DNA of 64,000 nucleotides, taken from Thermodesulfobacteriota bacterium. GTDB taxonomy: Bacteria; Desulfobacterota; RBG-13-43-22. Below, piece after piece: positions 7,644 through 43,625 of this stretch. Positions within the stretch are counted from its first letter, which is position 1. Each line of letters starts with the position of its first letter. A program made the position numbers and the translations under genes. The stretch lies in assembly GCA_049520575.1 (NCBI GenBank), contig JBEKPQ010000015.1, positions 17,527-81,526 of the forward strand. Reading direction: 5' to 3'. The notes beneath the pieces were generated by a model. The model was given only the letters and a program-made list of their open reading frames with translations. It was not told where the DNA came from and made no database searches.

Positions 7644-7700
7644 GGATTCAAGGATTCAAGTGAAAAGCGTGGAAGTTAAAACCCTTGAATCCTTGAATCC
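7644..7700. repeat. GGATTCAAGGATTCAAGTGAAA element with a matching inverted arm (CTTGAATCCTTGAATCC), hairpin-forming
   Basis: 17-bp inverted repeats 7644-7660 and 7684-7700. Same family as 29550-29605 and the composite copies near trpD. Confidence 0.7.
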
Positions 7701-7722
7701 TATTTTAAGGAGAGGAGAGGGT

Positions 7723-8178
7723 ATGGCTCCACAAAAAAGAAAAGACAAGCCCCTGGTTCTGCTAAAAAGCCTTGTTCTGGTTATTACCTGTCTGTCTTTT
7801 TTGGGCATTCTCTCTTGTAATTGGGGTTCCGGTACGGGCAGTACCTCCAGCTCCGGAAGCGGCTCAGGGACGGGGACGGGATGGACGATTGATATCCAAG
7901 TGGGTACAAACCCCATTCAAGTTGGTGGAACAACAACCGTGATGGCGATTATCAAGGACGGTAAAGGAGCGCCCGCCCCTAAAGGGACTTATGTCCGTAT
8001 GACGTCAGTTCTAAATAGTTTTTTAACAACATCAACACCAGTCAGAAGCGTATTTGGACCCACCGACAACGACCTTGGACAATTTATCCTTACCTATTAT
8101 GCTCAAAACACAGGGGACGATACCGTGGAAGTTTCTTCCCAAGGTGTAATTCAGAGAAAAACTATTACTGTTTATTAA
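7723..8178 (+). CDS. small lipoprotein with Ig-like (Big-type) domain
   Basis: AAGGAGAGGAGAGG Shine-Dalgarno before ATG 7723. Signal peptide with an LSC lipobox, then a Gly/Ser/Thr linker and a beta-rich domain. Paralogous to 9941..10354. Confidence 0.55.
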   Translation: MAPQKRKDKPLVLLKSLVLVITCLSFLGILSCNWGSGTGSTSSSGSGSGTGTGWTIDIQVGTNPIQVGGTTTVMAIIKDGKGAPAPKGTYVRMTSVLNSFLTTSTPVRSVFGPTDNDLGQFILTYYAQNTGDDTVEVSSQGVIQRKTITVY

Positions 8179-8254
8179 AGTCAGGCATTCCCTTTTTTGA
8201 CGGGACTAAACTAAATCGATTAAAATCATCCTTTTTCAAAAGGCTACATATTGT

Positions 8255-9934
8255 TCAGTCTGGTACCGCTTTATTAATGATTATTAAGAATGGTTCTGCT
8301 TTTTTCACACCGATGACCCGGGTTCCGGGGATCTCTTGCCCCTTTTGATCAAAAAACAAAATCGCCGGAGGGCCGAAAAGTCCGAATCTTTTTAAAAAAG
8401 CATCCGTTTCCTCATTGGTCGAGGTCACATCTGCCTTCAGGAGCTTCACTCCTTTGAGTTTTTCTTTGACCCGGGAATCTCTAAAGGTCAAAACCTCCAT
8501 CTCTTTACAGGATACGCACCAATCGGCAGAAACATAAAGCATTACCGCTCGTTCTTGAGTCTCTTTTATCTGGGCCTCTAATTGATTGAGGCTGGTCAGG
8601 CGCTGAAAAGAAAGGGATGAGGTCAAGGGCGGAGAGATAACGGGATAAATGATCCAAAAGGCAACGGCCAACAGGAGTATTCCAAAAAAGACTTTGACCC
8701 ATTTCATCCAGGCCCCGGCCCTCGGCAACAAGGCCCCGGCCGAGGTCCCTATGATTAATAAGGGGACGCCCATGCCCAAGGACAGGGCAAATAAGGCCGA
8801 ACCACCCAGCCAGACGTCGTTTGTCCGGCTGATATAAAGTAAGGCCCCGGCTAGAGGAGCGGTGACACAGGGACTGATAATAATGGCCGAGAGCAACCCT
8901 ATGAAAAAGACCCCCACGAAGGTACCGGCCTTGAACCTGTTCCCGGCGGCGGTCAATTTATTCTGTATGAAAACAGGGAGCTGCAATTCATAAAGCCCGA
9001 ATATGGAAAGGGCCAGGGCCACAAAGATCAAGGCAAAGGCAATCAGCACCCAAATATTTTGCAGCGCATGGGAAATTAATCGGCCTGAGTATCCGGCCGC
9101 CACACCGGCTGCTGTATAGGTCAAGGCCATGCCCAGCACATAGGTCATAGAAAGGAGGAAGGCTCTTTTTTTTATCAGATCCTTCCCCTGGGCAATAATG
9201 ATACCGGAAATGATGGGGATCATGGGCAAAACACAGGGCGTAAAAGAAAGCAGCAGGCCAAATCCAAAGAAGCTTAAAATGATCCAGAAATAGTTATTGC
9301 TTTTCAAAAGCCCGAAGATCTCACCTCCACTCTCCCCTATCGAGGTGGAGGGAGATGCCTTGGAAAAAGCTCCAGGTTCTTCCATCCCTTGGAGGGAAGG
9401 GGTTGAAGGGAAGGGGAAGGGATTCAAATGAACTTTTTGGGTCTTGGGCGGATAACATAAGCCGGCATCGGAACAACCTTGATAAGTGATACTGAGGATT
9501 ATTTGTAAGGTTCTCGGAGACAGTGAGGTTATTGGTATTATAATAACCGCTTCCTTACGGAAGATTTCCGCTCGGCCGAAGTATTTATCTTCTTTAACCT
9601 GGCCGGGTGGAAATTGAGGAGAGCCAATTTTTGTCTGTCTAGTTTCAACAGCAAATTTGAATTTATCCCGATACAGGTAATATTCTTGGGCAATCTGGAA
9701 ACGGATTTCAATCTGGCCGGCCTTGAGCAGGCGGGCTTGAAAGGAAAAGGCTTGTTCGGGTCTTAAAGGCTGACAATATACGGCCTGACACAGAAAAAGG
9801 ATTATAAAGAAAGATAAAATGAAAAAATGCAGGGTAAGACAAAAAGAAAAGTTGCCTTGGGATGTTGAACCTTGAACTTTGAACCTTGAACCTTTTTTAG
9901 GCTTTGAGCCTTGAGCCTTACACCTTGAACTCAT
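8255..9934 (-). CDS. dsbD: thiol:disulfide interchange protein DsbD
   Basis: N-terminal DsbD-alpha (QGCSDAGLCYPP), central multi-pass membrane domain (CVLPMIP) and C-terminal thioredoxin domain (DWCVSCK). The 5' 90 nt overlap a TTCAAGG tandem array, so the start is uncertain. Confidence 0.8.
   Translation of the reverse strand: MSSRCKAQGSKPKKGSRFKVQGSTSQGNFSFCLTLHFFILSFFIILFLCQAVYCQPLRPEQAFSFQARLLKAGQIEIRFQIAQEYYLYRDKFKFAVETRQTKIGSPQFPPGQVKEDKYFGRAEIFRKEAVIIIPITSLSPRTLQIILSITYQGCSDAGLCYPPKTQKVHLNPFPFPSTPSLQGMEEPGAFSKASPSTSIGESGGEIFGLLKSNNYFWIILSFFGFGLLLSFTPCVLPMIPIISGIIIAQGKDLIKKRAFLLSMTYVLGMALTYTAAGVAAGYSGRLISHALQNIWVLIAFALIFVALALSIFGLYELQLPVFIQNKLTAAGNRFKAGTFVGVFFIGLLSAIIISPCVTAPLAGALLYISRTNDVWLGGSALFALSLGMGVPLLIIGTSAGALLPRAGAWMKWVKVFFGILLLAVAFWIIYPVISPPLTSSLSFQRLTSLNQLEAQIKETQERAVMLYVSADWCVSCKEMEVLTFRDSRVKEKLKGVKLLKADVTSTNEETDAFLKRFGLFGPPAILFFDQKGQEIPGTRVIGVKKAEPFLIIINKAVPD
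9850..9934. repeat. tandem octamer array (G[TC]TCAAGG-like units) of the GGATTCAAGG family
   Basis: Minus-strand reading: gttcaaggtgtaaggctcaaggctcaaagcc...ggttcaaggttcaaagttcaaggttcaac. Confidence 0.7.
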
Positions 9935-9940
9935 AACTTT

Positions 9941-10354
9941 TTAAGGCGCATACACGTAAATACTGACCCAGGCAACAGCCCCTTGATAGGACGCAGTAAT
10001 TTGATCAACCTTGTTGGCGGCAGTGGTGGTGGCGACTGCCGGTGCGAGATAAGTGGCTGAACAGACCCCAAGGTTAATCGAATTAGGAGTATTAGTTGGA
10101 GTAATTGTCGCCCCTAAAGAAGAAGTAAATGTAACCCCCTTAGCTGAATCATTGACGGGATTTCCCTGGGCATCTTTCACTGAGGCGATCAGGGTGGTTG
10201 ACCCTCCTTGGGGGAGAAGGGTGCTGGTGGCTGTGAGATTGATCGAATAGCCCCCCCCCGTTGCATATCCGCTTGAGGAGGAAGTGTTGGAACATCCGGC
10301 GATCCCCAAAACACATAGCATCAGACAACAAAGAAATATTTTAGTATAAGTCAT
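9941..10354 (-). CDS. small lipoprotein with Ig-like domain
   Basis: Signal peptide with an IAGC lipobox and a Ser/Gly-rich linker. Paralogous to 7723..8178. Co-oriented with dsbD, 4 nt upstream of it. Confidence 0.55.
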   Translation of the reverse strand: MTYTKIFLCCLMLCVLGIAGCSNTSSSSGYATGGGYSINLTATSTLLPQGGSTTLIASVKDAQGNPVNDSAKGVTFTSSLGATITPTNTPNSINLGVCSATYLAPAVATTTAANKVDQITASYQGAVAWVSIYVYAP

Positions 10355-10632
10355 TCCCTGTTCCTTTATTAAACATATAGCCGTTAGTTTTTTATATAAT
10401 ACTATCTGTTATTAAACTTTTTGTCAAGTTAATTTAGAGAGATAAGATAGAAAAATTTGTCTTTCCCTATTTGTCAAAACCCACGGTTCTCGATTCGATG
10501 TGAAGTATCAATGCCTATCTTATTATTGGAGATATTTCCATTATCCTTCTTTTAAACTTGACTCCTTCCCTTAAAAAATACTATAAACAATCAAAGTTAA
10601 CTTATCTAATCTACTTGGAAATAATTATTTTT

Positions 10633-11940
10633 ATGCCCTTAGGCCTTATCCTCTATAATATCCTTACCGGGATTCTTTTTTTAATCGTGTTTCCTTTCCT
10701 GATCTTGTATAATCTGGCCCAAGGAAAGTTCAGCAATAATTTGGTTGAGAGGTTGGGGCGATATCCTCGCCATCTCCGGCCGGATGAACCCTTGACTGAT
10801 GCCGGGCCGGTCTGGATTCATGCTGTTTCAGTGGGTGAGATCAAGGCCGCCATTGCCCTGACCCGGAGGATCAAAGAGCAACTCCCCGAGGTTCCCATCC
10901 TTGTTTCAACGACAACACCGGCAGGAAGGGAAACAGCCGAAAAGTTCTTGGGGAAGGAAATACCCGTTATTTATTTTCCCCTGGATTTTTACCCTTGCGT
11001 AAAAATGGCAATGAACTTCTTTCACCCCAGGGCCTTTGTGGCCTTGGAAACCGAATTGTGGCCCAACTTTCTTTTTCAGGCCAATAAATCAGGCAGTAAA
11101 TTGATCCTGGCCAACGGACGGATCTCCAGCCGCTCTTTTAAGGGGTACTCCAGGATTCGCTGGCTCTTGCGGCCTATTCTTGAGAAATTCAGGGTATTGA
11201 TGGTCAGGGATCCTGATGACGCCAGGTGTTTGATCTCGCTGGGGGCTGTGCCTGAGCGGGTCCGGGTTTTGGGAAACATTAAATACGATGGTCTGGTGGA
11301 TCAGGCTCAGGAAGCCTTGCGGCTCAAGGTCCGGCAACGGCTTCATCTCCCCGAAGCAAGGCCTGTTATCGTAGCCGGAAGTACCCGGGGAGGAGAGGAA
11401 GCGGTTCTCCTTAAAGTCTATCTCCGTTTAAAGACCTCTTTCCCGGAACTGATTTTAGTTCTAGTCCCTCGCCATATCGATCGATGTGCGGAGATAGAAA
11501 CCCTATTACAACGGCAGGGGATTTCTTTTCAGTTGTATAGCCGGATCCTTTCATTGGAGGAGCAGAGGGAAGTTGACGTTATCCTCGTAGATCGCGTCGG
11601 CGATCTTTTTGGCCTTTACAGCCTGGCAACCATTGCCTTTTGCGGGGCCAGTCTGATCCCAAAGGGAGGCCAGAATATTTTAGAGCCGGCTGCCTGGGGG
11701 AAACTGGTCTTCTATGGACCTTACATGGAAGACTTCAAAGATGCCCGTCGGCTTTTGGAAGATGCCGGGGCCGGGATTATGGTTCGCGGTCAGATAGAGT
11801 TAGAAAAACAAATGGCCTATTTTTTAGAACACCCGGAAGAACGGGAAAGACGGGGAAATGCCGGCCGTGAAGCCTTAAAATCGCAGACAGGACTGACTAA
11901 AAAAGCGGCCGAGATCATTGCTGAAATTATTAGGAATTAA
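10633..11940 (+). CDS. waaA: 3-deoxy-D-manno-octulosonic acid (Kdo) transferase
   Basis: Glycos_transf_N motif (WIHAVSVGE). ATG at 10633 is preferred over the TTG at 10558 that begins the tracked ORF. Confidence 0.8.
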   Translation: MPLGLILYNILTGILFLIVFPFLILYNLAQGKFSNNLVERLGRYPRHLRPDEPLTDAGPVWIHAVSVGEIKAAIALTRRIKEQLPEVPILVSTTTPAGRETAEKFLGKEIPVIYFPLDFYPCVKMAMNFFHPRAFVALETELWPNFLFQANKSGSKLILANGRISSRSFKGYSRIRWLLRPILEKFRVLMVRDPDDARCLISLGAVPERVRVLGNIKYDGLVDQAQEALRLKVRQRLHLPEARPVIVAGSTRGGEEAVLLKVYLRLKTSFPELILVLVPRHIDRCAEIETLLQRQGISFQLYSRILSLEEQREVDVILVDRVGDLFGLYSLATIAFCGASLIPKGGQNILEPAAWGKLVFYGPYMEDFKDARRLLEDAGAGIMVRGQIELEKQMAYFLEHPEERERRGNAGREALKSQTGLTKKAAEIIAEIIRN

Positions 11941-11954
11941 TAATAATAAATAAG

Positions 11955-13094
11955 ATGAAAGCGTTATTGGCATTAGAAGACGGGACCGTGTTTCCGGCCC
12001 GATCCTTTACCGGCCCTGGGGAGGCCGAAGGGGAATGTGTTTTCAATACGGCCATGACCGGATATCAGGAGGTCCTGACCGATCCTTCTTACAAAGGGCA
12101 GTTGGTTGCCATGACCTATCCTTTGATCGGAAATTATGGGGTCAACGACCAGGACGTGGAATCGGATAGGATCCAGGTTGAGGCCTTTCTGGTCAAGGAA
12201 TATCTACCCTTCCCGAGTAACTTTCGATCGCAATCCCCTTTGGCTGTGTATCTGAAAAAAAGCAAGGTCTTTGGCCTGGAAGGGATCGACACCCGGGCTT
12301 TGACCCGTCACCTCCGAAACTATGGGGCCATGCGGGTAGCTGCCTCTACGGAGCAATTGAAAGCCGAGGCCTTGGTAGAAAAAGCCCGCTCCATCCCGAC
12401 CATGCTTGGTCTTGGATTGGTGGATCAAGTCACGACCGACCGTCCTTTTCTCTGGTCGAAGGAAAAGAAAATTCCCGTTGCCGAGGCTCAAAAGAAAAAC
12501 CCTTGGAAGGTGAACGGGTCTTCTTATAAAGTGGCGGTTCTGGATTGCGGGGTCAAGTTCAATATCCTGCGCAGTCTGGAGCGACGGAATTGTCAGGTTC
12601 TGGTAGTCCCTGCTCAGACTCCGGCCCAGGAAATCCTGGCAATCAAGCCCGATGGGCTTTTGATCACCAACGGCCCCGGGGATCCGGCGGCCAATCCGGG
12701 AATCGTTCGAACCGTCCGACAACTTCTGGACCTGCTGCCAATCTTCGGTATCTGCTTGGGCCATCAGATCCTGGGACTGGCCCTGGGCGGGGCCACTTTT
12801 AAACTCAAGTTCGGACATCGGGGGACCAATCAGCCGGTCAAGTATTTGAAGACCGGCCGGGTGGAAATCACCTCTCAGAATCACGGCTTCTCGGTAGATA
12901 TTAATTCTATAAAAGATCCGGATGTGGAACTGACCCATATCAATTTAAACGATCAGACCCTGGAAGGGTTGGAACATAAACGATTACCCATTTTTTCCGT
13001 TCAATATCATCCCGAGGCCTCGCCCGGTCCCCATGACGCCTCTTATTTATTCGATCATTTTCTGTCCCTCATGGGGAGACACCGGAGAAAATAG
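11955..13094 (+). CDS. carA: carbamoyl-phosphate synthase small subunit
   Basis: CPSase small-chain N-terminal domain and GATase active site (GICLGHQ). Confidence 0.95.
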   Translation: MKALLALEDGTVFPARSFTGPGEAEGECVFNTAMTGYQEVLTDPSYKGQLVAMTYPLIGNYGVNDQDVESDRIQVEAFLVKEYLPFPSNFRSQSPLAVYLKKSKVFGLEGIDTRALTRHLRNYGAMRVAASTEQLKAEALVEKARSIPTMLGLGLVDQVTTDRPFLWSKEKKIPVAEAQKKNPWKVNGSSYKVAVLDCGVKFNILRSLERRNCQVLVVPAQTPAQEILAIKPDGLLITNGPGDPAANPGIVRTVRQLLDLLPIFGICLGHQILGLALGGATFKLKFGHRGTNQPVKYLKTGRVEITSQNHGFSVDINSIKDPDVELTHINLNDQTLEGLEHKRLPIFSVQYHPEASPGPHDASYLFDHFLSLMGRHRRK

Positions 13095-13097
13095 TTC

Positions 13098-16000
13098 ATG
13101 CCCAAGCGAACCGACATTCAAAAAATCCTGATTATCGGCTCCGGCCCGATTATCATCAGCCAGGCCTGTGAATTTGATTATTCAGGCACCCAGGCCTGCA
13201 AGGCATTGCGGGAAGAGGGATTTGAAATCGTTCTGGTCAACAGCAACCCGGCCACCATCATGACCGATCCGGAGATGGCCCATCGGACCTATATCGAACC
13301 GGTCACCCCGGAAATCGTGGCCAAGATCATTGAGCGGGAACGACCGCAGGCCCTGCTACCGACTTTGGGCGGGCAGACCGGTCTTAACACCGCTGTTGCT
13401 GTGGCCGAGATGGGGGTATTGGACACTTTCGGTGTTGAAATGATCGGAGCATCTCTACCGGTGATTAAAAAGGCCGAGGACCGGGATGAGTTTAGACGGG
13501 CCATGTGGAAGATTGGGTTGCGGGTGCCGGAAAGCGTCATCGTCACCAGCCTGGAGGAGGCCCGCGCCCAGGTGGAAAAAATCGGCTATCCTATTATCAT
13601 CCGCCCCAGTTTTACCCTGGGCGGCACCGGCGGCGGAGTGGCCTATAACCGGGAGGAGTTCGAACTCCTGGTGACCTCCGGATTGGAAGCCAGCATGATT
13701 CATCAGATCATGCTGGAGGAATCCGTCCTGGGCTGGAAGGAATACGAACTCGAGGTCATGCGGGATTTCAAAGACAATGTCGTCATCATTTGTTCCATTG
13801 AAAATTTCGATCCCATGGGGGTCCATACCGGCGATTCCATTACCGTGGCCCCGGCCCAGACCCTGACTGACAAAGAATATCAGGCCATGCGGGATGCTTC
13901 TTTGGCTATCATCCGCGAGATCGGGGTGGAGACCGGCGGATCGAATATCCAATTTGCCGTGCATCCCGGAAACGGTGAGATGGTGGTCATTGAAATGAAT
14001 CCCCGGGTCTCCCGCTCCTCGGCCCTGGCTTCCAAGGCCACGGGATTTCCTATTGCCAAGATTGCCGCCAAGCTGGCCGTGGGTTATACACTGGATGAGA
14101 TCCCCAATGACATTACCAAGGAGACCATGGCCTCTTTTGAGCCGACCATCGATTATTGTGTGGTCAAGATTCCCCGCTGGACCTTTGAAAAATTCCCCGG
14201 CTCGGAAGATTATCTGACAACTTCCATGAAATCCGTGGGCGAAGCTATGGCTATCGGCCGTACCTTTAAGGAAGCCTTGCAAAAAGGGATTCGCTCTCTG
14301 GAGATCGGACGGTTCGGATTTGGTGCCGACGGAAAAGATTTTTTTCAAATTCCCCTGGATGAAATCCAGAAAAAAATGCGCCAGCCCAATTCCCAGCGGA
14401 TTTTTTATCTGAAGGCCGCTTTGGAAGCCGGCATGACCATCGAAGAGATAAATGCCCTAACCTGGATCGATCCCTGGTTTCTCCATAACCTGTCTCAGAT
14501 CCTGGCCATGGAAAAAACCTTGGCTGGTCAAACCTGGGAAAGTCTGTCGCCGGAACTCCTGAAACAGGCCAAGGAATACGGCTTCTCCGATGTCCAGATC
14601 GGATATCTGCTTCAAGTTTCTCCGTTGGAAATTTTTAAAAAAAGACAGGCGCTCAAGATGCTTCCGGTCTATAAATTAGTCGATACCTGCGCCGCCGAAT
14701 TCGAGGCCTATACCCCCTATTATTATTCAACCTATGACTTAGAAGATGAATCCCGGCCTTCGGAAAAAGAACGGATCATGATCCTCGGCGGCGGGCCAAA
14801 CCGGATCGGGCAGGGGATCGAATTCGATTATTGCTGTGTCCATGCCTCTCTGACGGCCAAGGAAGAGGGCTATGCCAGCATCATGGTCAACAGCAATCCG
14901 GAAACGGTCAGTACGGACTATGATATTTCCGACAAACTGTATTTTGAACCCCTGACCCATGAAGATGTCTTTCATATTATTGACCGGGAAAAACCCAAAG
15001 GGGTCATTGTCCAGTTCGGGGGCCAAACCCCTCTGAATCTGGCTGTGGGTCTTCAGGCGGTCCAGGCCCCGATTATCGGCACTTCTCCCGATAGTATCGA
15101 CCGGGCCGAAGACCGGGAACGATTTAAAGAATTACTGAAAAGGCTGGGATTGTTCCAGCCGGAAAACGGGACGGCCTTCACCACCCAAGAGGCCCTGACA
15201 GTTGCTGAATCGATCGGATTCCCCGTTGTGGTCCGTCCTTCTTACGTCCTGGGCGGCCGGGCCATGGAGATCGTGTATGAGCCGGCTGCCCTGGAAACCT
15301 TTATGGCCAAAGCGGTTCTGGTCTCACCGGGGCATCCCATCCTGATTGACAAATTCCTGGAAGAGGCCGTTGAAATCGATGTGGATGCGGTTTCCGACGG
15401 GCGGAAGACTTTGATTTGTGGAATTATGGAGCACATTGAAGAAGCGGGGATCCATTCGGGCGACAGTGCCTGCGTTCTTCCACCTTACACCCTCAAGGCG
15501 GACCAGATTGATCGGATCAAGTCCAACACCTATGCCTTGGCCCGGGAATTGGGTGTTCAGGGCCTCATGAATATTCAGTATGCGATCAAAGACGATATCC
15601 TTTATGTCCTGGAGGTCAACCCCCGGGCCTCCCGGACGATCCCTTTTGTCAGCAAAGCCACAGGAATTCCCTGGGCCAAGGTGGCCACCCGGGTCATGCT
15701 GGGCCAAGACCTGGAATCTCAGGGATTGACCGGAGAAATCGTTCCCAGTCATATTTCAGTCAAAGAATCAGTCTTCCCTTTTTTACGTTTCCCCGGAGTG
15801 GATACCCTGCTTGGCCCGGAGATGAAATCCACCGGAGAGGTCATGGGCATCGATCACAGTTTCGGTTTGGCCTTCGCCAAATCGCAGTTGGCCGCCGGCA
15901 TGGATCTGCCCCTATCAGGCACGGTCTTTATCAGCGTCAAGGATCAGGATAAAAAAATAATATTATCCACGGCTCAAAAATTATATCATTTGGGCTTTAA

Positions 16001-16319
16001 AATCATTGCTACTTCAGGGACCTCACGTTTTCTGGAACAGGCCGGGCTTCCCAATCAAAAGGTCAATAAAGTCCGGGAAGGAAGGCCTCATATCGTGGAC
16101 CTTATGAAGAACGGGGAAATCCAGTTGGTCATTAACACGACCATTGGTTCCAAAAGTGTTTCCGAATCCTCTTCCATCCGGCAAACCGCCCTGATCCGTC
16201 GGATCCCTTACACCACTACGGTCGCCGGGGCTAGGGCCACGGCCGAGGCTATTGAGGCCCTGCAGCAGAAAAAACTTTCCGTACGGACCATACAGGAGTA
16301 TCATCAGGATCTGAAATAA
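13098..16319 (+). CDS. carB: carbamoyl-phosphate synthase large subunit
   Basis: 1073 aa with two ATP-grasp halves plus oligomerisation and MGS-like domains. Confidence 0.95.
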
Positions 16320-16320
16320 A

Positions 16321-16440
16321 AAAAGAAGGGATCGAGGGTTCAAGAAGTCAAGGCTTGCGGCGAGCTCAGCCGAGCGGATTCGAGTAAAATGCTTGGAACC
16401 AATACCCTTGAATCCTCGGTCCCTTGAAACCTTTGTAGAT
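16321..16440. repeat. modular intergenic repeat of the GGTTCAAG/CTTGAATCC family
   Basis: Shares modules (gggttcaag, gagctcagccgagcgg, cccttgaatcc) with the elements at 42161-42300 and 43381-43625. Confidence 0.6.
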
Positions 16441-20219: not shown

Positions 20220-20322
20220 GGGATAAAACCGTTCGTCGTTTGGCGACAAAGACAAAATAATTTTCACACCTATTATCTATAACCAAAACCCTCAACCTTG
20301 AACCTTTTTATTGGAGTCTTTT

Positions 20323-29542: not shown

Positions 29543-29549
29543 AAAATCT

Positions 29550-29605
29550 GGATTCAAGGATTCAGGGATTCAAGTGAAAGGCTTGGAAATCAATCTCATG
29601 AATCC
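29550..29605. repeat. GGATTCAAGGATTCAGGGATTCAAGTGAAAGG ... ATGAATCC element (same family as 7644-7700)
   Basis: Sequence identity to the 7644-7700 element. Lies immediately upstream of the def start. Confidence 0.65.
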
Positions 29606-29820
29606 TAGTTTTTTTTAATAAAACTCTTTATTATTTCTTTCCTTAAAATTTGAATTATTAACAATATGCAGAAAAACCCTCTATTACAGGTTGCTCAAAA
29701 AGGTTCAGATACAAGGCGCCCGAAATTCCGAAGAATGAGGCGTAATAGAAGTACGCCGCAATGACGAGGGATGAGGGCAACGCTGTAGATGGGCCTTTTT
29801 CAGTAACCTGTTAATTTTCT

Positions 29821-33824: not shown

Positions 33825-33896
33825 CCGTCTGCTCAACCAATCCCTATTCGTGGTGCCCGCACAGACGGGTATAAGTGTTTAGTTCGAAAATAAGAA

Positions 33897-33998
33897 TGTT
33901 GAATTTCGAACACCGAATTTCGAATCATGAATGGATTGGTCTCGTTTTAACTTCGACATTCAATATTTGTGTAATTTGATATTCGACATTTTCATACC
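33897..33998 (+). promoter_or_regulatory. copy 2 of the conserved upstream element (TGAATTTCGAACACCGAATTTCGAATCATGAA...GATATTCGACATTTT)
   Basis: Aligns with the elements at 1736-1833 (reverse complement) and 38193-38288. Precedes the CbbQ-like gene. Confidence 0.6.
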
Positions 33999-34092
33999 TC
34001 ATGGTGCCCTGCTAGGAGCAGGAGGGTTTAATAAGAAAAACGACCTTCCATTCCGGTTGTAAGAAAGGAGAAACTATGATAGCCTTCCTTTT

Positions 34093-35034: not shown

Positions 35035-36123
35035 ATGCCGATGAGGGACATCTACCAAGAAATAGACCGGGAACTCGGTCAAAATAAGGAAGTGATCCTG
35101 GCCACTATTGTTGCCCGGAAAGGGTCAACTCCCCGCGCTCTGGGGACCCAGTTTTTGATTCGGCCCGACGGGTCTTTTTGGGGAACGATCGGAGGCGGAA
35201 AGGTGGAGGCCGATGTTCTGGCCGAAGCCCCAAGGGTTTTCGCGGAGAAGAAAAACAGGATCTTCCTTTTTCGATTAACCGGCGAGGAAGCGGCCGAGAC
35301 CGGAATGATTTGCGGGGGCGAGCTTGAAATCTATCTGGAATTTTTTTCCGGACGGAATCCTTTTCACCGGGATTTTTTTAAAAAGATATCCGAGTTTCGG
35401 AAATTCGGCCAACCCGGCCTGATAGTAACCCTTATGGAGGAAGGAAAATCAACAGGCCGTTCTGATGACAAATACCTTTATGTGCCGGGGGAAGAACAAG
35501 GACTTGAAAACGTGCCTTGGATAACCCCTGTTCTGGAACACATTCCCCGGATCCTTTCGGGCCAACAACCGGCTTTGTTGATGGCTGAGGTTCAAGGGGA
35601 AAAAAAGAAATTTTTTCTGGAACCTATAATAGCCCCGTCCCATTTATACATTTTTGGGGCCGGTCACGTTTCTCTATATCTGTGTGCCTTGGCCAAAACG
35701 GTTGGATTTCAGGTGACGGTTTTGGATGACCGGGCTGAATTTGCCGATCGGCGGCGATTTCCTGATGCGGACGACCTTGTAGTCCGGCCGTTTGATCAGA
35801 TGCTGAAGGATTTTCCGATTGAGCCCAATGCTTTCGTGGTCATCGTAACCCGTGGTCATCTGCACGACCATATGGTTCTTCGAGAGGTCTTGAAAAACCC
35901 TCCACGTTATATCGGGATGATCGGCAGCCGGCATAAGAAAGAAATTATCTTCACGGCCCTGCGGCAGGAAGGGTTTTCTGAGGACCTCATTCAATCCATC
36001 CATACTCCTATCGGACTGGACATCAGGGCCGAAACGCCGGAGGAAATCGCCGTTTCCATCGTAGCCGAGCTCATCCAGGTCAGGGGTTCTGGAAAAACCA
36101 AAAAGAAAAAAATACCGACCTGA
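35035..36123 (+). CDS. XdhC/CoxI-family molybdenum-cofactor insertion chaperone-like protein
   Basis: N-terminal XdhC_CoxI motif (ATIVARKGSTPRALGTQFLIRPDGSFWGTIGGGKVEADV) and C-terminal Rossmann-like XdhC_C (YIFGAGHVS). Confidence 0.8.
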   Translation: MPMRDIYQEIDRELGQNKEVILATIVARKGSTPRALGTQFLIRPDGSFWGTIGGGKVEADVLAEAPRVFAEKKNRIFLFRLTGEEAAETGMICGGELEIYLEFFSGRNPFHRDFFKKISEFRKFGQPGLIVTLMEEGKSTGRSDDKYLYVPGEEQGLENVPWITPVLEHIPRILSGQQPALLMAEVQGEKKKFFLEPIIAPSHLYIFGAGHVSLYLCALAKTVGFQVTVLDDRAEFADRRRFPDADDLVVRPFDQMLKDFPIEPNAFVVIVTRGHLHDHMVLREVLKNPPRYIGMIGSRHKKEIIFTALRQEGFSEDLIQSIHTPIGLDIRAETPEEIAVSIVAELIQVRGSGKTKKKKIPT

Positions 36124-36178
36124 TCCCTCGATGCTAGGATCATCTTTTAAAAGCTAACTCAATTCAAAGGAGTACATT

Positions 36179-38116: not shown

Positions 38117-38192
38117 GACGATAAAATGCAGAATTCGTTCGTCATAAAGCGTGCGGCGTTCGGGGAAATCAAGAACAAAGAAAATATGACTA

Positions 38193-38288
38193 TTGAAATT
38201 CGAACACTGAATTTCGAATTATGAAGGGAGTTCGATTTGATTTCCTTCGATATTCAGTATTCGTTATTCGATATTCGACATTTTTGGC
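38193..38288 (+). promoter_or_regulatory. copy 3 of the conserved upstream element
   Basis: ATTGAAATTCGAACACTGAATTTCGAATTATGAAGGGA...TTCGATATTCGACATTTTT. Ends 3 nt before ATG 38292. Confidence 0.6.
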
Positions 38289-38291
38289 TTC

Positions 38292-39632
38292 ATGTCCCAG
38301 CCTGCCGGCGGACATGAGACTTTAGAGAAGATTAGTAAAAAAACGATAATGTCCATCCCCGCTTTGGTCAAGGTGCTCTGTGTCTTCGGTTTGGTTCTCG
38401 TTCTTAACCGAGTACGCCTTGGTTTGAGTCTCTGTCTCTTCATCGGTTCTTTGGTGCTTGGTATCTGGATGCAAATGGGTCCCGCCGATCTGGTTTGGAG
38501 CGCCCTTCAAAGTCTCGTGCACATCCAGACGATCAGCCTGATCCTGATTGTCGGATTTATCCTGGTTATCAGCTGTCTGATGAAAGAGAGCCGGCATCTG
38601 GACCGGATCGTGGAAGGCTTTGCCCGGATTTCGGGTGATGATCGTACCGCAAGTTTGGTGTTGCCGGCCCTGATCGGGTTACTTCCCATGCCCGGGGGCG
38701 CGCTTTTCTCTGCACCCATGGTTGAAGCCTCCCTTAGTAGATACCCTTTAACCGGCGAATATCAAACAGTAGTCAATTATTGGTTCCGGCATATCTGGGA
38801 ATACTGGTGGCCGCTCTATCCGGGGGTGGTGCTGGCAGTGGCCTTACTGAAGGTGGAGATGTGGCGTTTTATTGCCATCATGGTGCCTATGACCATTGTG
38901 ATGGTCTTGGCCGGCGTGATCTTCATTCTAAGACCCATCAGACAAGAGTCCATTTCTCGGAAGAAGGTCTTCTCCTCATCAGGGCTGAAAAGTTTTTTGT
39001 GGGAGATCATGCCAATCCTCGTTGTTGTTATGGTCATTATTCTCCTGGCGGGTCTGACCGGCCTTTTGAATCTTTCCGGGATCAATATCAACCTGCCTGG
39101 GGCCGTGTCTATTCTTCCCGGTCTCCTGGTATCCGCCATCTGGGTATGCGTAGTCAACCGTATTCATTTCAGGCAATTGACGACAGCGGTCTTTGATCGG
39201 AACATCCTTTTCATTATATTTTTAGTGGCAGCCATTATGATCTTCCAGGGGATTATGAAAGACAGCCGGGCTGTGGTCGAAATTCGAAACGAACTTATGG
39301 CCTACAGGATTCCTCTTCTGCTGGTTATCATCATCATGCCTTTTCTGTCTGGTCTTATCACTGGAATTGCCATCGGATTTGTGGGGACCTCTTTCCCTCT
39401 GATCATTCCTCTGTTTCCTGTTTATCCCCTTATTAATTTTCTCTCCTATGCTGCACTGGCCTATGTTTTCGGCTTTGTGGGCATGATGCTATCTCCGGTC
39501 CACCTTTGTTTCCTGGTCACCAAAGACTACTTTAAAGCCAATCTCCTGGGCAGCTATCGCCTCATCATTTACCCCACGTTGAGTGTTTTATTAACGGCCG
39601 TTGTTTTCTTTGTAATTTCCAGGGCGCTCTAA
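38292..39632 (+). CDS. polytopic membrane protein (about 12 TM, DUF401-like; function unknown)
   Basis: Long hydrophobic ORF. The alternative start at 38349 cannot be excluded. Confidence 0.5.
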   Translation: MSQPAGGHETLEKISKKTIMSIPALVKVLCVFGLVLVLNRVRLGLSLCLFIGSLVLGIWMQMGPADLVWSALQSLVHIQTISLILIVGFILVISCLMKESRHLDRIVEGFARISGDDRTASLVLPALIGLLPMPGGALFSAPMVEASLSRYPLTGEYQTVVNYWFRHIWEYWWPLYPGVVLAVALLKVEMWRFIAIMVPMTIVMVLAGVIFILRPIRQESISRKKVFSSSGLKSFLWEIMPILVVVMVIILLAGLTGLLNLSGININLPGAVSILPGLLVSAIWVCVVNRIHFRQLTTAVFDRNILFIIFLVAAIMIFQGIMKDSRAVVEIRNELMAYRIPLLLVIIIMPFLSGLITGIAIGFVGTSFPLIIPLFPVYPLINFLSYAALAYVFGFVGMMLSPVHLCFLVTKDYFKANLLGSYRLIIYPTLSVLLTAVVFFVISRAL

Positions 39633-39668
39633 AGACTCCCAGGGCCATCTAATGTTGTCAAAAAAAGT

Positions 39669-39697
39669 ATTGACACTGATTTTTCGTTCTGATATAA
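39669..39697 (+). promoter_or_regulatory. consensus sigma70-type promoter (TTGACA-17-TATAAT) of the trp operon
   Basis: TTGACA at 39669-39674, a 17-nt spacer, then TATAAT at 39692-39697. Confidence 0.7.
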
Positions 39698-39728
39698 TTC
39701 TTCTTAAATTTTTTCAGGAATCCGAATT

Positions 39729-39803
39729 ATGAATCAAAATTCAACAAGTAACAAAAATTGGTGGTGGTGGAAGGATTCAAGGGAGGGGTTCGTCCACCGC
39801 TAA
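39729..39803 (+). CDS. trpL: trp leader peptide with four consecutive Trp codons
   Basis: ATG AAT CAA AAT TCA ACA AGT AAC AAA AAT TGG TGG TGG TGG AAG ... TAA gives MNQNSTSNKNWWWWKDSREGFVHR. Followed by a terminator hairpin. Confidence 0.75.
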   Translation: MNQNSTSNKNWWWWKDSREGFVHR

Positions 39804-39821
39804 CCTGATAAGATAAACCAT

Positions 39822-39910
39822 AAGCCGTGGAGAACTTCTCATAGTCTCCACGGCTTTTTTATTTGTACTGCTAAAAAGGCCGTGAAGAAGAAAATCACGG
39901 TCTTTTTTTT
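39822..39910 (+). terminator. attenuator terminator pair (two stem-loops, each followed by a T-run)
   Basis: AAGCCGTGGAGA...TCTCCACGGCTTTTTTATTT, then GGCCGTGA...TCACGGTCTTTTTTTT. Confidence 0.7.
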
Positions 39911-40024
39911 ACGTGGAAGCGGCCAGGGGTTGCCTTTTGGACAACATCAAAAATAAGACCCCATAAGACCCATAAGCTATGATTGATAGAAAAATTACAA
40001 ATTGCTTTGGTTAGGAGCTTGATA

Positions 40025-42160
40025 ATGAATGATTACTATGTAACCTCTACCGGGATAAAGATTCTTCGAAGTGTTGAGGCATTGGACTATGAATCCGCAC
40101 TGGAAATTCCCCTGGCGGATATCGATCGATTCAAAGGCGCTGTTTTTGCCAGTGGTTATGAATATCCGGGAAGATACAGCCGCTGGGATATTGCCTTTTT
40201 AAATCCTCCGCTTCAGATTATCTGTTACGGCCGGGAATTCCGCCTGGATGCCCTGAATGATCGGGGGGAAATCCTTTTAAATTTTCTTTACCTGCCGTTG
40301 ACCCAAAATCCCCACCTGGTTGAGATAGAAAGAACCGAAGGTGGAATAAAAGGGAATATTGTTCCCATTTCCGGTTATTTTCCTGAAGAGGAACGCAGCA
40401 AACAGCCCAGTTTCTTTTCCATTATCCGTTCTTTTATTAAACTGTTCGGTTCCAATGCCGATCCCCATCTCGGATTATATGGGGCCTTTGGTTATGATCT
40501 GGCCTTTCAGTTTGAACCGATTCAATTGAAACATAAGCGTCCGGCCTTTTATAAAGAGGCTCATCTATTCCTGCCCGATGACTTGATTCTGGTCGATCAC
40601 CGCAAAGAAACAGCCCAAAGAAGGCGTTATGATTTTATTTTTAATGGACAGGACACACTGGGATTGGAACGGAAGGGAGAAAGGATAGAGATTAAGCGCG
40701 GCACACCCGGTGAAATTGAGATAGATCACGGGCCGGGGGAGTATGCCGACAAGGTTCGTCAGGTCCAGGAGGGTTGCCGAAAGGGTGATTTTTTCGAGGT
40801 CGTCCCCAGTCAGCTTTTTTATACCGGTTATGCCGGTACACCGGGGGAATTATTTAACGTTGTCCGAACGGTCAACCCAAGCCCGTACGAGTTTTTAATC
40901 AATTTGGGAGACGAACAACTGGTCGGTTCATCACCGGAAATGTTCGTCCGCGTAGATGGAGACTTTGTGGAAACCTGCCCCATCTCCGGGACGATCAGTC
41001 GGGGAAGGGACGCCATGGAAGATTCGGACCAGATTCGTACCTTGCTTAATTCCATAAAAGATGAATCGGAACTGACCATGGTTACGGATGTGGATCGCAA
41101 TGATAAATCACGCATCTGTAAACCGGGTACAGTGCACTTAAAGGGCCGCCGCCTTATTGAGACCTATTCCCGTCTCTTCCATACGGTCGACCATGTGACC
41201 GGCACATTACAGGAAGATTGCGATTCCTTAGATGCCTTTTTATCCCATATGTGGGCTGTCACTTTGACCGGCGCCCCAAAAAGAGCCGCTATGCAGCGAA
41301 TTGAAGACCTGGAAAATTCACCGCGACAGTGGTATGGCGGCGCCATAGGCTTTATCAGCTTTAACGGCAACCTGAATACCGGCATTACCATTCGTACGAT
41401 CCATCTGAAGGACGGAGTGGCCCGAGTAAGGGTCGGTGCGACCCTTCTTGTAGACTCGGACCCGGATGAGGAAGAAAAAGAGACCCGCCTTAAGGCCGCC
41501 GCCTTTATCGACGCTGTTTTAGGAAAAAGGCCGCCGGAGCGCGCACCGTTCGTTCCGCCTCGTCCAAAGGGAAGGCCGCCGAAAATCCTTTTTGTGGATC
41601 ACCAGGACTCCTTTGTGCATACCCTGGCCAATTACGTCCGTCAGACCGGGGCCCAGGTTATTACTTTGCGGGCCGGCTTTCCCCTTGAAGTCCTGGAGAA
41701 AGAGAAGTGGGACATGATTTTTCTCTCTCCCGGTCCGGGCCGTCCGTCCGATTTCGGGGTGGCCGCTCTGGTCAAGGCCTGTGTGGAACGCAACCTGCCG
41801 GTATTTGGTGTGTGCTTAGGTCTGCAAGGGATGGTCGAGGCCTTTGGCGGAAGACTCAGCCTTCTGGATTATCCGATGCACGGAAAACCCTCGATCATCA
41901 GGAATAATCAGAAAGGAATTTTCGAAGGGTTCCCGGAGACCTTTAAGGCCGGGCGATATCACTCCATCTTTGCGAAGATGGAGGATCTGCCTTCGTGTTT
42001 AGAAAGAACGGCCGTAAGCGATGACCAGATTATTATGGCAATTGCCCATAAAGAGCTGCCGATAGCGGCCGTGCAATTTCATCCGGAATCCATCCTGACA
42101 CTCAAGGATGACCGGGGTTTGAAACTGCTGACCAACGTAGTACGGTTAGTTCGAAAATAG
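40025..42160 (+). CDS. trpEG: anthranilate synthase, fused components I and II (TrpE-TrpG)
   Basis: Chorismate-binding domain followed by a class-I glutamine amidotransferase (VFGVCLGLQG, HPES). AGGAG Shine-Dalgarno 7 nt before ATG 40025. Confidence 0.9.
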   Translation: MNDYYVTSTGIKILRSVEALDYESALEIPLADIDRFKGAVFASGYEYPGRYSRWDIAFLNPPLQIICYGREFRLDALNDRGEILLNFLYLPLTQNPHLVEIERTEGGIKGNIVPISGYFPEEERSKQPSFFSIIRSFIKLFGSNADPHLGLYGAFGYDLAFQFEPIQLKHKRPAFYKEAHLFLPDDLILVDHRKETAQRRRYDFIFNGQDTLGLERKGERIEIKRGTPGEIEIDHGPGEYADKVRQVQEGCRKGDFFEVVPSQLFYTGYAGTPGELFNVVRTVNPSPYEFLINLGDEQLVGSSPEMFVRVDGDFVETCPISGTISRGRDAMEDSDQIRTLLNSIKDESELTMVTDVDRNDKSRICKPGTVHLKGRRLIETYSRLFHTVDHVTGTLQEDCDSLDAFLSHMWAVTLTGAPKRAAMQRIEDLENSPRQWYGGAIGFISFNGNLNTGITIRTIHLKDGVARVRVGATLLVDSDPDEEEKETRLKAAAFIDAVLGKRPPERAPFVPPRPKGRPPKILFVDHQDSFVHTLANYVRQTGAQVITLRAGFPLEVLEKEKWDMIFLSPGPGRPSDFGVAALVKACVERNLPVFGVCLGLQGMVEAFGGRLSLLDYPMHGKPSIIRNNQKGIFEGFPETFKAGRYHSIFAKMEDLPSCLERTAVSDDQIIMAIAHKELPIAAVQFHPESILTLKDDRGLKLLTNVVRLVRK

Positions 42161-42300
42161 GATTTGAGGGTTTAGACACTCGACTTTGTCGAGCTATAGA
42201 AAAGGTTCCCCTCCGGGGAACCCGGGATTTAACTTCCGCGCATTTCACTTGAATCCTTGACCCCTTGAATCCTGGGACCCTACTTAGTATTAATTAAAGA
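42161..42300. repeat. composite structured repeat (hairpins, GGTTCCCC/GGGGAACC stem, TTTCACTTGAATCC module)
   Basis: Shares about 70 nt (cgagctatagaaaaggttccc ... gggaacccggg.t.taacttcc...tttcacttgaatccttg) with 43381-43625. Confidence 0.65.
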
Positions 42301-42313
42301 AGGAGGACGGAAA

Positions 42314-43375
42314 ATGATTCAGGGAGCGATCGGGAAGGTCGTAAACAGAGAGGATCTGAGCCAGGTAGAGATGGAAGCGGTCATGAATGAGATCATGAGC
42401 GGGGAAGCTACTCCGGCCCAGATTGGGGCCTTTATCACGGCCCTCAGGATGAAAGGAGAAACGGTTGATGAGATCGTCGGCGCGGCGCGGGTGATGCGGG
42501 AGAAGGCCACAAAAATCCATGTGATCGACACCTCATTGAGCCTTGACCGTGACGAGATCAATGTTGATGCCGAGACGATTCTAGACACCTGCGGGACCGG
42601 TGGAGACGGCACCAACACCTTTAATGTTTCGACCGCTACCGCTCTGGTGGCTGCCGGAGGGGGTGTCAAGGTCGCCAAGCACGGCAATAGGGCCGTTTCA
42701 AGCCAATGTGGAAGCGCGGATGTTTTGGAAAACCTGGGAGTCAAACTCGACATCAGCCCTCTGGATGTTGAAAGATGTATACGTGAGATCGGCCTGGGGT
42801 TTTTATTTGCCCCTCTTTTTCATGGGGCCATGAAATTTGCCGCCGGGGCCAGAAAGGAGATAGGTTTGAGGACCATATTCAATGTCCTTGGACCATTGAC
42901 CAACCCGGCCGGGGCGACAGCCCAGGTCCTCGGGGTCTACTCCCCCGACTTAACGGAAAAAATGGCCCAGGTCCTCGGCAAATTGGGTTCAAAAGAGGCC
43001 TTTGTGGTCTGTGGGGAAGGAACCTTCGATGAGATCAGCATCTGCAGCCCGACCCGGATCGCTCATCTCAAGGACGGAGAGGTCAAAAGTTATCAAATTA
43101 CCCCCGAGGAGTACGGATTTCAAAGGGCCGCGATTGGTTCTATCAAAGGCGGAGACGCCCAGGAAAACGCCCGGATCATTCGAAACATACTGGATGGCCA
43201 GGAAGGGGCCAAACGGGATATGGTCCTGTTGAACACAGGCGCAGCCTTTGTGGCCGCCGGACTTGATCAGGACCTGAAGGCCGGCATCCAACGGGCCAGG
43301 GAAGTGATTGATTCGGGCAAGGCCAAACTTAAGCTTGAACAGTTGATTGCATTTACCAACAGTGTTAGCTCTTAA
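42314..43375 (+). CDS. trpD: anthranilate phosphoribosyltransferase
   Basis: Motifs [14 protein letters not shown] and KHGNRA. Confidence 0.95.
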
Positions 43376-43380
43376 TACAC

Positions 43381-43625
43381 AAAAGGGTTCGAGGATTCAA
43401 GGGTTCGAGGGTTCAGCCGCTCGGTCCGCTCGGCTCCGCCGAGCTTCTGAAGAGGCTCCCTCTTGGGAGCCGATCCGGCGAGCTATAGAAAAGGTTCCCG
43501 TACGGTCGGCTTTGCCGACCTAAAAGGGAGGCTTCCGAATGGAAGCCGGATCGGGGAACCCGGGTCTAACTTCCATGCCTTTCACTTGAATCCTTGGACC
43601 CCTGACCCCTTGAATCCTTTTTCAG
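43381..43625. repeat. longer composite copy of the same structured repeat, with two extra inserted hairpins
   Basis: Contains ggattcaagggttcgagggttcag, gccgctcggtccgctcggctccgccgagc, and hairpins ggtcggctttgccgacc and ggcttccgaatggaagcc. Confidence 0.65.

Follow-up and report, generated by a model that had tools for sequence, protein, structure and literature searches.

Repeat copies in the window

The window analyzed in this study, a stretch of 64,000 nucleotides on contig JBEKPQ010000015.1 of a Thermodesulfobacteriota bacterium, contains gcvH, dsbD, carB, purF, priA, fmt, trpEG, trpD, and trpC, genes whose identities had been guessed correctly in an earlier note on this DNA, and several of the spacers beside them hold copies of a modular hairpin repeat. 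Its signature is the 9-mer GGATTCAAG (complement, CTTGAATCC), which ranks first among the 9-mers of the 64-kb window, with 15 exact copies against about 0.5 expected from base composition. Here we describe these copies, their counterparts in related genomes and metagenomes, and the evidence that they are probably (we put the probability at roughly two-thirds) nonautonomous miniature derivatives of insertion sequences (IS) of the IS110 family, plus decayed remnants of such derivatives, with insertion beside preexisting right ends.

A profile hidden Markov model built from 59 related copies matched exactly five places in the window: 7601-7701 (+), 16316-16433 (+), 29544-29609 (+), 42147-42290 (-), and 43374-43625 (-). 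All five have tandem 8-nt units (GGATTCAA, GGGTTCGA, and the like) as their left arm, a loop of the form TGAAA.GC..GGAAGTTAAA.., and a complementary right arm. Four copies fold far better than dinucleotide shuffles (z of -2.9 to -7.5), the exception being the truncated copy at 29544. Tandem Repeats Finder reported a period of 8 at 7643-7701, 29550-29574, and 43384-43414 and a period of 7 at 9865-9919, 6168-6276, and 38246-38282. The repeat family claimed in the earlier note was partly confirmed: five of its sites stood, both by profile and by the shared element, and those at 39770, 9850-9934, and 20285 fell away. Its description of shuffled modules held up, since tandem GGATTCAA/GGGTTCGA units, TTTCACTTGAATCC, GAGCTATAGAAAAGGTTCCC, the GGTTCCCC/GGGGAACC stem, and GCCGAGCGG-type hairpins are shared and reassorted between copies. 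The retained elements extend further than the note had given; the copy assigned to 7644 begins near 7603, with an extra hairpin module, and the one assigned to 42161 begins at 42146.

Across the family, an intact consensus unit of about 145 nt is built from modules A, B, and C, and a long form reaches about 200 to 250 nt. The left flank of the unit ends in YTAA. Module A comprises RCCCWCATGC, a 5- to 9-bp hairpin of variable sequence, and then CACCACGAAnCATGAAAA (CACCACGAAnCATGAAAAA in the consensus); per-sequence folds keep this hairpin through at least eight different stem sequences. In a strand test of the A hairpin, the complementary strand was favored by 32 to 15 (p = 6e-4), the signal coming from the conserved flanks. 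Module B consists of a left arm with the consensus AGGGTTCAA GGGGCCGA GGGGTCAA GGATTCAA G, whose tandem units include GGGTTCAA, a loop with the consensus TGAAAGGCrTGGAAGTTAAAA, and a right arm with the consensus CCCTTGAA CCCTCGAA TCCTGGAA TCCTTGAA CCCT. Module C has the consensus ATTTTCGTATTAA (also written ATTTTCGWAYTAA or ATTTTCGTAYTAA). The B hairpin is imperfect, and because most copies, on both strands, share identical internal mismatches, the copies must descend from a master sequence and did not arise locally. The long form adds CGGTTCCCCGGAGGGGAACC-TTTTCTATAG-CTCGACGAAGTCGAG-CGGCTGAA, with nested GC mini-hairpins, between the loop and the right arm; in the subfamily formed by the window copy at 43374, L085, and L098, its stems are expanded by further GC mini-hairpins. 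CAAGGAU repeat motifs sit in the stems, on either strand, and readings of them as a CsrA sponge or as SD mimics were set aside. Two other identities were considered for these modules and rejected: a hammerhead or other ribozyme in module A, for which the core nucleotides are absent by eye and no Rfam match was found, and a small ORF (open reading frame; ATGAAAAAC...TAA), which is lost because the arms vary by 7 to 8 nt and the reading frame is not maintained.

The short-form element at 7603..7712 (+), between gcvH and a small ORF that starts at ATG 7723, matches the profile with an E value of 7e-19. It carries a decayed module A (hairpin at 7606-7620, then CACGAAACATGAAAAT at 7621-7636), a hairpin B at 7644-7700 in which two perfect GGATTCAA units lie on each side of the loop TGAAAAGCGTGGAAGTTAAAAC, and a shortened right-end module C (CTATTTT, 7700-7706) that continues into the ribosome-binding site, and it folds at -36.7 kcal/mol (z = -4.25). 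This copy had been placed at a gene start, and alignment with the ortholog in L086 sets it upstream of the true start. In the carB/purF spacer lies a diverged hairpin B (16316..16440, +; E = 4.5e-12) with an extra GC hairpin, GCGAGCTCAGCCGAGC, within its left arm and neither A nor C recognizable; its fold reaches -50.1 kcal/mol (z = -5.8). The truncated short form at 29544..29609 (+; E = 2.5e-10), in the priA-fmt spacer and antisense to both flanking genes, retains the conserved loop with three units to its left and a single degenerate unit to its right, and its fold is not significant (z = -1.7).

The trpE(G)/trpD spacer holds a long-form element (42146..42293, core on the minus strand; E = 7e-18; fold z = -2.9) composed of the arms, the loop, a GGTTCCCC-GGAG-GGGGAACC hairpin, TTTTCTATAG, and a CTCGAC-AAAG-GTCGAG hairpin. 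One edge is an exact minus-strand C at 42146-42158 (ATTTTCGAACTAA), the other a degenerate plus-strand C at 42282-42293 (ACTTAGTATTAA). The element starts in the last trpE(G) codons, with the stop codon TAG (42158-42160) falling inside it, and has a terminator-like hairpin on the minus strand only. In the trpD/trpC spacer is a long form with expansion hairpins (43374..43628, -; E = 8e-26), namely GGCTCCC..GGGAGCC, GCTCGGC..GCCGAGC, GGTCGGC..GCCGACC, and GGCTTCC..GGAAGCC; it folds at -129.6 kcal/mol (z = -7.5), and TTTTT comes after the hairpin on the plus strand.

A related, complete element that the earlier list of sites had missed was recognized by pattern matches and sequence at 33879..34040 (-). 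On the minus strand it runs from a C-like left flank, TTTTTCTTATTAA (34040-34028), through a left end A, ACCCTCCTGCTCCTAGCAGGGCACCATGAGGTATGAAAAT (34027-33988), and a TCGAAT-type hairpin with heptamer arms (33987-33892) to a right end C, ATTTTCGAACTAA (33891-33879); as DNA it folds with a z of -2.8. A second left-end remnant, at 33878-33842, follows directly. The window copies are mostly fossils: the one at 7603 has a degenerate left end, that at 42146 has right-end-like sequence on both sides, and the intact framed unit at 33879 carries other cargo.

Module ends and full-length IS110 relatives

Scanning species-representative genomes with a 20-base core pattern, GGATTCRAGTRAAANGCNNGGAA, returned at least 108 stretches, nearly all in about a dozen uncultured "delta proteobacterium"/Thermodesulfobacteriota metagenome-assembled genomes (MAGs). 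The family is abundant elsewhere, the reverse of the absence that the earlier note had named as grounds for refutation. The nearest named relative of the window by TrpD is Deltaproteobacteria bacterium RBG_13_43_22 (90% identity). In these loci nhmmer delimited 140 elements, all of them intergenic; in 12 cases that look like exceptions, the supposed gene is a spurious short ORF running through the element. Mean identity is 86% among copies of one MAG and 83% among copies of different MAGs, and 37 of 94 copies have their nearest neighbor in the same MAG, versus 19.7 expected. A pattern for module A, GGCRCCACGAANCATGAAAA, matched at least 120 stretches in metagenomes of sediment, wetland, and soil origin, and neither pattern had a match in viral contigs. 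A literature search found no paper on the repeat sequences themselves. At L005 5549-6340 (-), an ORF caller would lengthen a twin-arginine signal protein (MFGRSRRKFL..) by about 42 residues (MKNRVQGAEGSRIQVKGVEVKTLEPSNPGILGPYFRIIKGVP), and the extra residues are an element translated in frame from the ATG of CATGAAAAAC; elements read in frame are a likely source of misannotated N termini in these genomes.

Modules A and C also frame cargo other than the octamer hairpin, including arrays of (CTCCGAA)n, (CGAACGN)n, (CCTTGAA)n, and (TCGAATN)n, GC-rich palindromes, GTAGGGGCGGGTTTTAAACCCGCCCCTAC, and a GGAATGAC-type repeat. Inserts between A and C range from 6 to 7 nt (GGATCT, tGAATCT) to more than 150 nt in the metagenome loci, the octamer hairpin among them, and units follow one another head to tail, as in L007 (four units) and L040 (three units). 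None of the MAG loci has an ORF between an A and its C, all A-to-C distances being 20 to 300 nt, and ORFs between oppositely oriented A modules in those loci are ordinary genes.

ORF clustering around the MAG loci gave housekeeping families only and no recurrent transposase. In the metagenome loci it gave one recurrent family, at ten loci, an IS110-family recombinase. The 412-aa ORF of L230 contains the Pfam domains DEDD_Tnp_IS110 (PF01548, 1.3e-29) and Transposase_20 (PF02371, 2.6e-21), and the same two domains are precomputed for P0179 and P0192. The order at L230 is a flank ending in TATTTTCGAATCAA, a left end ACCCTCATGCCCATCCGGGGCACCACGAAGCATGAAAAT (ACCCTCATGCC..CACCACGAAGCATGAAAAT), about 200 nt of noncoding DNA, the ORF, and a right end finishing in CTTATTTTCGAATCAA before the other flank. 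On the long ENA contigs L233 and L234, the left end is GCATTCATGCC..GACGAATCATGAAAAT and the right end finishes in TATTTTCGTACTAA; each of these IS lies directly after a miniature unit ending in TATTTTCGTGTTAA, and the adjoining unit in L234 carries the octamer hairpin with the core loop. L236, L152, the truncated L147, and a soil group (L118, L136, L157, L224, and L231) repeat the L230 layout with other flank and end sequences, and L231 shows a junction of right end to left end. The recombinases of the full-length relatives are 412 to 480 aa long.

The ends of these elements resemble the modules of the gene-less units. The consensus of module A, ACCCTCATGCCCC..GGGGCACCACGAAtCATGAAAA, compares with the L230 left end ACCCTCATGCCCATCCGGGGCACCACGAAGCATGAAAAT, and module C, ATTTTCGWAYTAA, compares with the IS right ends ATTTTCGAATCAA and ATTTTCGTACTAA. 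A matches the left end and C the right end of L230, L233, L234, L236, and L152; in L147 the match is to the left end only. Module A is therefore the left end of these IS, and module C is their right end.

We aligned the 5' noncoding regions of five IS variants and found a common RNA scaffold, ..AGGTCG..GGCGGT.AGACCCCGAG[x]ACTGACC..GTTGCCCC..GGGAG..GCG[y]ATTTTT..ATAATCTGCCCCC.., in which 18 of 62 predicted pairs show a compensatory change. Segment x copies the last 7 to 9 nt of the element's own left flank, and segment y copies the last 7 to 8 nt of its right end. In L230 both x and the left-flank end are GAATCAA, as are y and the right end; in L233 and L234 the corresponding pair is GTGTTAA for x and GTACTAA for y, in L236 GTAAAAAAC and CATAATAA, and in the soil group GACAGAGC and AAGGCAG. 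In L147 x equals the left-flank end GTCCAAAC, and y (GTATTAA) was matched to the right end of minimal elements with the same left flank, the copy itself being truncated and its right end unseen. Judged from sequence, these two covarying RNA segments are the predicted target and donor guide signature of a bridge RNA in the full-length relatives. The miniature copies encode neither this RNA nor a recombinase.

Other IS110-like genes were seen in the same material. On the reverse strand of L041, at about 5000-6250, a second and distant IS110-like gene lies inside a GTCATTCCCGCGCAGGCGGGAATCCAGG...CTGGATTCCCG repeat; this repeat type fills the trpD/trpC spacer of two relatives (L109 7090-7240 and L112 7100-7230) and is cargo in the A..C frames of L159, L164, L184, and L212. 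At 2440-2500 of L235 and L237-L240, an IS110-type element without its left end and most of the 5' RNA adjoins a transposase gene of the IS1595 type, as if another insertion had cut the element short.

Orthologous sites bear on how the units move. The trpD/trpC spacer, which holds the long form in the window, has a short form in L106 (86% DNA identity) and L035 (70%), a different repeat in L109 and L112, and a heptamer hairpin in L110; the trpE/trpD spacer of L109, L110, and L112 contains other hairpins of 7-nt units, and in L106 (about 1300-1390) the place of the window element is exactly a run of N. The gcvH spacer of L086 has an unrelated GC-rich palindrome. At one intergenic site, L010 and L101 carry complete A-B-C units in opposite orientations, each bounded by TTAA. 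At another, L082 has a short form and L098 an expanded long form, while L064 has an additional A-B'-C unit plus an A plus a long form. L088 has four more 8-nt units than L021, with flanks 96% identical, and at the same site L087 keeps only a decayed right arm. These swaps, gains, losses, and flips mark the spacers as hot spots of turnover. Clean empty sites were not found, the orthologous spacers being filled by other repeats or decayed copies. Copies of 142 nt that are 98 to 99% identical occur at unrelated loci, both within CAVYLJ and between CAVYLJ and CAWIRY, and because this identity includes A and C, the composite moves as a unit. The ends of A-B-C units are unlike and are not inverted repeats, and no variable duplication flanks the near-identical copies. 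Of the 35 copies with both A and C, 29 show YTAA at the left flank and 30 show it at the right end; only 12 have identical left and right tetramers.

Origin of the repeats

The reading of the repeats as miniature IS110 derivatives and their remains follows from this combination of unlike ends, lack of duplication, YTAA at the left flank and right end, and insertion after a C-like sequence, the last of which also yields tandem arrays. We infer that a partner recombinase and its RNA would mobilize the units in trans. In the mechanism we propose, recombinase and bridge RNA would act on DNA bounded by a C-like site and a C end, the bounded unit would be excised as a circle, and the circle would reinsert 3' of another C-like YTAA site. 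If the target guide in this lineage resembles the element's own right end, as we suppose, units would land beside earlier units and build arrays in intergenic spacers; A-B-C units do occur in either orientation at the palindromic TTAA. After insertion the arms would gain or lose 8-nt units by slippage, and the end modules would decay.

A more specific version, to which we give slightly less than even odds, is that the target guide of one IS110 clade has become tuned to the right end of its own relatives, with full elements and trans-mobilized, gene-less units accumulating head to tail. In that version a miniature unit would need a left end of about 45 nt and a right end of 14 to 20 nt, would carry from 6 to 7 up to 250 nt of cargo, and would find intergenic "safe harbors."

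Several observations weigh against an IS110 origin. Neither the window nor the approximately 0.9 Mb sampled from related MAGs yielded a full-length partner IS. The known partners lie on metagenome and ENA contigs not tied to a genome, although those of L233 and L234 share a sampling project with the close relatives L109 and L112. By patterns, 45 of 116 core copies have neither A nor C (35 have both, 28 have C only, and 8 have A only), and just one window copy of GGATTCAAG, that at 7603-7712, has any A, a degenerate one. The A at the L082/L064 site looks as if it had been added beside an existing B; from this and from the many end-less hairpins, the hairpin may be an older, captured palindrome. 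Beyond YTAA, the miniature copies differ in their left flanks to a degree that a single fixed guide would not permit. The conservation of the loop is partly ascertainment because the loop was in the search pattern, and circle formation, mobilization in trans, and RNA-level effects are themselves steps that we infer.

The strongest rival builds on some of the same facts. It holds that the octamer hairpin B is an independent, older host palindrome, of the foldback type or like a REPIN (two repetitive extragenic palindromic [REP] units that together form a hairpin), and that IS110 elements merely use a C-like end for landing; the A-B-C composites would then be secondary, the window copies never IS110 derived, and B often flanked by inverted, C-like A/T runs. 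The 45 copies lacking both end modules and the 28 with C only fit this idea, as do the window copies at 16316, 29544, and 43374, which have no A or C, and the inverted C-like ends of 42146-42293. L082 has B alone where L064 has A units beside B, orthologous spacers of relatives contain other hairpins of 7-nt units without A or C, and L041 has its second IS110-like gene within another repeat; repeated palindromes, REP among them, are known targets of IS110 elements (PMC11208160). However, the composites that are 98 to 99% identical over 142 nt at unrelated loci move as a unit, we found no enzyme or mechanism for spreading B alone, and a self-complementary hairpin should decay more slowly than the end modules. 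We regard an independent palindrome as unlikely.

Much less probable is a REP/REPIN family mobilized on single-stranded hairpins by a RAYT (REP-associated tyrosine transposase, IS200-like). The earlier note had called the family REP-like or BIME-like (bacterial interspersed mosaic element), which is apt for its form (dispersed, modular, palindromic, extragenic, and between operon genes) and unsupported if REP proper is meant. The elements do share with REPINs an extragenic location, inverted arms that make a hairpin of about 100 nt, and hundreds of copies, tandem clusters, and persistence across related species (PMC3116915); they have no terminal inverted repeat (TIR) or target site duplication and show a short conserved sequence at the left flank. 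Their arms, however, are tandem octamers (3 to 5 units) that are not themselves palindromic and lack a GTAG head, and the A and C ends are accounted for by IS110-type elements. One MAG does encode a RAYT-like gene (L012; Pfam Y1_Tnp, 3.2e-6), which is flanked by a different REP of its own, CACAGCCGGGGGCGGCTGTGCTAC, and not by A, B, or C, and queries with Y1 transposase sequences found no other Y1 transposase in approximately 1.6 Mb of element-rich DNA. This gene, at 2314-2892 (-) of L012, has HVHMIF and YICQNPV motifs and CACAGCCGGGGGCGGCTGTGCTAC on both sides, with a further copy of that REP within its 5' coding region.

We give equally little credence to a family of structured small RNAs or cis-regulatory mRNA elements selected for RNA functions in processing, stability, or termination, the other possibility raised in the earlier note. 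Predicted folds are strong (z down to -7.5), the A hairpin shows compensatory variation, copies lie inside operons, some have an A-run/hairpin/T-run layout with a terminator-like subhairpin, and the core is kept between species whose trpD DNA is only 70% identical. Yet the spacers are co-directional in 82 cases, divergent in 19, and convergent in 15, giving no preference for 3' ends, and relative to co-directional flanking genes 40 elements have the same and 42 the opposite orientation, an absence of bias that makes a strand-specific RNA function unlikely. In the consensus, the central part of the hairpin carries mismatches on either strand. At orthologous spacers the element gives way to unrelated hairpins or is flipped, and it has no promoter or terminator frame of its own. 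Rfam 15 gave no match in the window at the gathering threshold, only chance-level matches in 42100-43700 at E values up to 10, and none for A..C units or the IS 5' RNA. The family is best explained as something other than a structured-RNA gene family. Effects on mRNA processing, stability, or termination are plausible as side effects: the trp and carB-purF operons contain long hairpins, in some cases with a T run after them, and when transcribed these would probably act incidentally, as RNase III sites, exonuclease barriers, or weak terminators. A classical MITE (a miniature transposable element with inverted repeats) driven by a DDE transposase can be set aside, as the A-B-C ends are unlike and near-identical copies have no variable duplication beside them.

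The sites that dropped out of the family have other identities. At 39770-39795, GGATTCAAGG codes for the leader-peptide part WWWW(K/Q)DSREGFV, which is kept in five of five orthologous trp leaders. The region 39670-39860 is a textbook trp attenuator, conserved in five relatives and without an Rfam match, with a perfect TTGACA-17-TATAAT promoter (39670-39698), the leader peptide MNQNSTSNKNWWWWKDSREGFVHR, in which Trp is encoded four times, and, near 39826-39856, a terminator hairpin with a T run. The supposed octamers at 9850..9934 (-), in the spacer between a hypothetical gene and dsbD, are 7-nt direct arrays, (GGTTCAA)n and (GGCTCAA)n, or (CCTTGAA)n on the other strand, with units in one direction, no conserved loop, a z of +0.3, and no profile match; they represent a related class and another family, and a (CCTTGAA)n array of this type is cargo in the A..C frame of L038. 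At 20285..20315 (+), just upstream of a ribosome-binding site, two to three weakly matching units without a profile match are at best a remnant of a right arm and right end (CCCTCAACCTTGAACCTTTTTATTGG, compared with the canonical CCCTCGAATCCTTGAACCCTATTTTCGT).

Further features of the window lie outside the family. Intergenic hairpins at 6168-6276 and 38190-38282, with arms of 7-nt units ((GGATACT)n versus (..ATCCGCC)n and (GAAnnnn)n versus (TTCGATA)n), have no A or C ends, and arms with a 7- to 8-nt period are a habit of the whole lineage. A noncoding part of the priA-fmt spacer (29658-29815) is 85 to 87% identical to sequences in other MAGs (L008 315-473 and L065 7089-7238); Rfam has no match for it, and candidates for its identity are a small gene, a conserved small RNA, and a further repeat. 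The 159 bp at 48169-48327 are 89% identical to L066 584-742.

Implications and comparison with known systems

If the miniature IS110 reading is correct, an intergenic repeat becomes a readable record of natural RNA-guided recombination, and bridge recombinases support large nonautonomous families, of which the literature searched gave one small example, MITEPpu9. Retargeting of a guide to its own end would then yield tandem arrays in harmless sites, and the units would hint at how small the ends of a natural donor can be. The same explanation would account for the long hairpins and spurious N-terminal extensions found between operon genes in an abundant uncultured, sulfate-reducer-like lineage and would mark places in which to seek mRNA processing or partial termination. 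Were the more specific version with a self-tuned target guide also true, these units would constitute a natural, high-copy, cargo-swapping donor system for bridge recombination in many sediment and soil lineages and would define minimal natural donor ends.

Repeats of comparable form have been described elsewhere. Paired tandem octa- and heptanucleotide sites in Geobacter metallireducens, interpreted as binding sites for IHF/HU regulators, separate biosynthetic genes, with examples near trpB2 and in the proB/proA spacer, and have no assigned function; no link to IS was reported except for ISGme8/9 at a fixed distance from class 1 sites (PMC2700814). Like the arms of module B, these sites, the heptamers of the cyanobacterial STRR (short tandemly repeated repetitive) sequences, and TAACTGA repeats (PMC4679880) are intergenic runs of three to five tandem 7- to 8-nt units, often in inverted pairs whose spacing varies. 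The resemblance to STRR-like repeats and to the G. metallireducens class 1 to 3 sites is one of form only, with no sequence relation.

REP, BIME, and REPIN sequences and their RAYTs (PMC3116915) offer a second parallel, being extragenic, able to form long hairpins from inverted arms in single-stranded DNA or mRNA, clustered or in tandem arrays, long persistent in related genomes, and targets of IS110-type elements. The window family differs from them in its octamer arms, in a loop at least as conserved as the arms (the loop having been part of the search pattern), in its IS110-type ends, and in the different REP that accompanies the RAYT. Pneumococcal BOX elements (boxA-boxB(n)-boxC) and the Correia elements of Neisseria are modular and MITE-like, form stable hairpins, are cotranscribed with their neighbors, and can create RNase III sites or terminators; Correia elements have TIRs, a TA duplication, and a DDE-type mechanism. 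The A-B-C build with variable internal subunits recalls BOX, and unlike Correia elements, the repeats described here have neither TIRs nor duplications.

The closest relationship is to IS110 elements. These lack TIRs, integrate site specifically and often into repeats, and recombine around a short core that target and donor both contain; their left noncoding end supplies a two-loop RNA, and a 22-bp donor suffices when the bridge RNA is provided in trans (PMC11208160). The full-length relatives found here likewise have a recombinase with PF01548 and PF02371 after a structured RNA of about 200 nt, as in the systems with bridge RNA or seekRNA (IS621, ISPpu9, and ISPpu10; PMC11208160 and PMC12288879). 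Further points of agreement are the absence of TIRs and duplications, a core shared by left flank and right end, site-specific insertion into repeats, and RNA segments that match target and donor. Unlike those systems, the window elements have neither a recombinase nor an RNA gene, the target in this lineage probably resembles the element's own right end, which would give head-to-tail arrays, and the left end has a conserved hairpin followed by the CACCACGAAnCATGAAAA motif. We know of no earlier description of that motif.

Among nonautonomous elements, the nearest counterpart is MITEPpu9, a MITE-like derivative of the IS110-family ISPpu9 in Pseudomonas putida that carries the ssr9 small RNA gene as cargo (PMC12288879). 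Both have cargo unrelated to the parent IS, and movement by a transposase acting in trans has been proposed for MITEPpu9 (PMC12288879) as it is here. The units described here, seen so far as sequences alone, differ in that their cargo is interchangeable, from 6 to 7 nt up to 250-nt nested hairpins, and in that they form tandem arrays. MITEPpu9 is present in eight copies in one strain, whereas the present family comprises at least 100 sampled copies in a dozen MAGs and many habitats.

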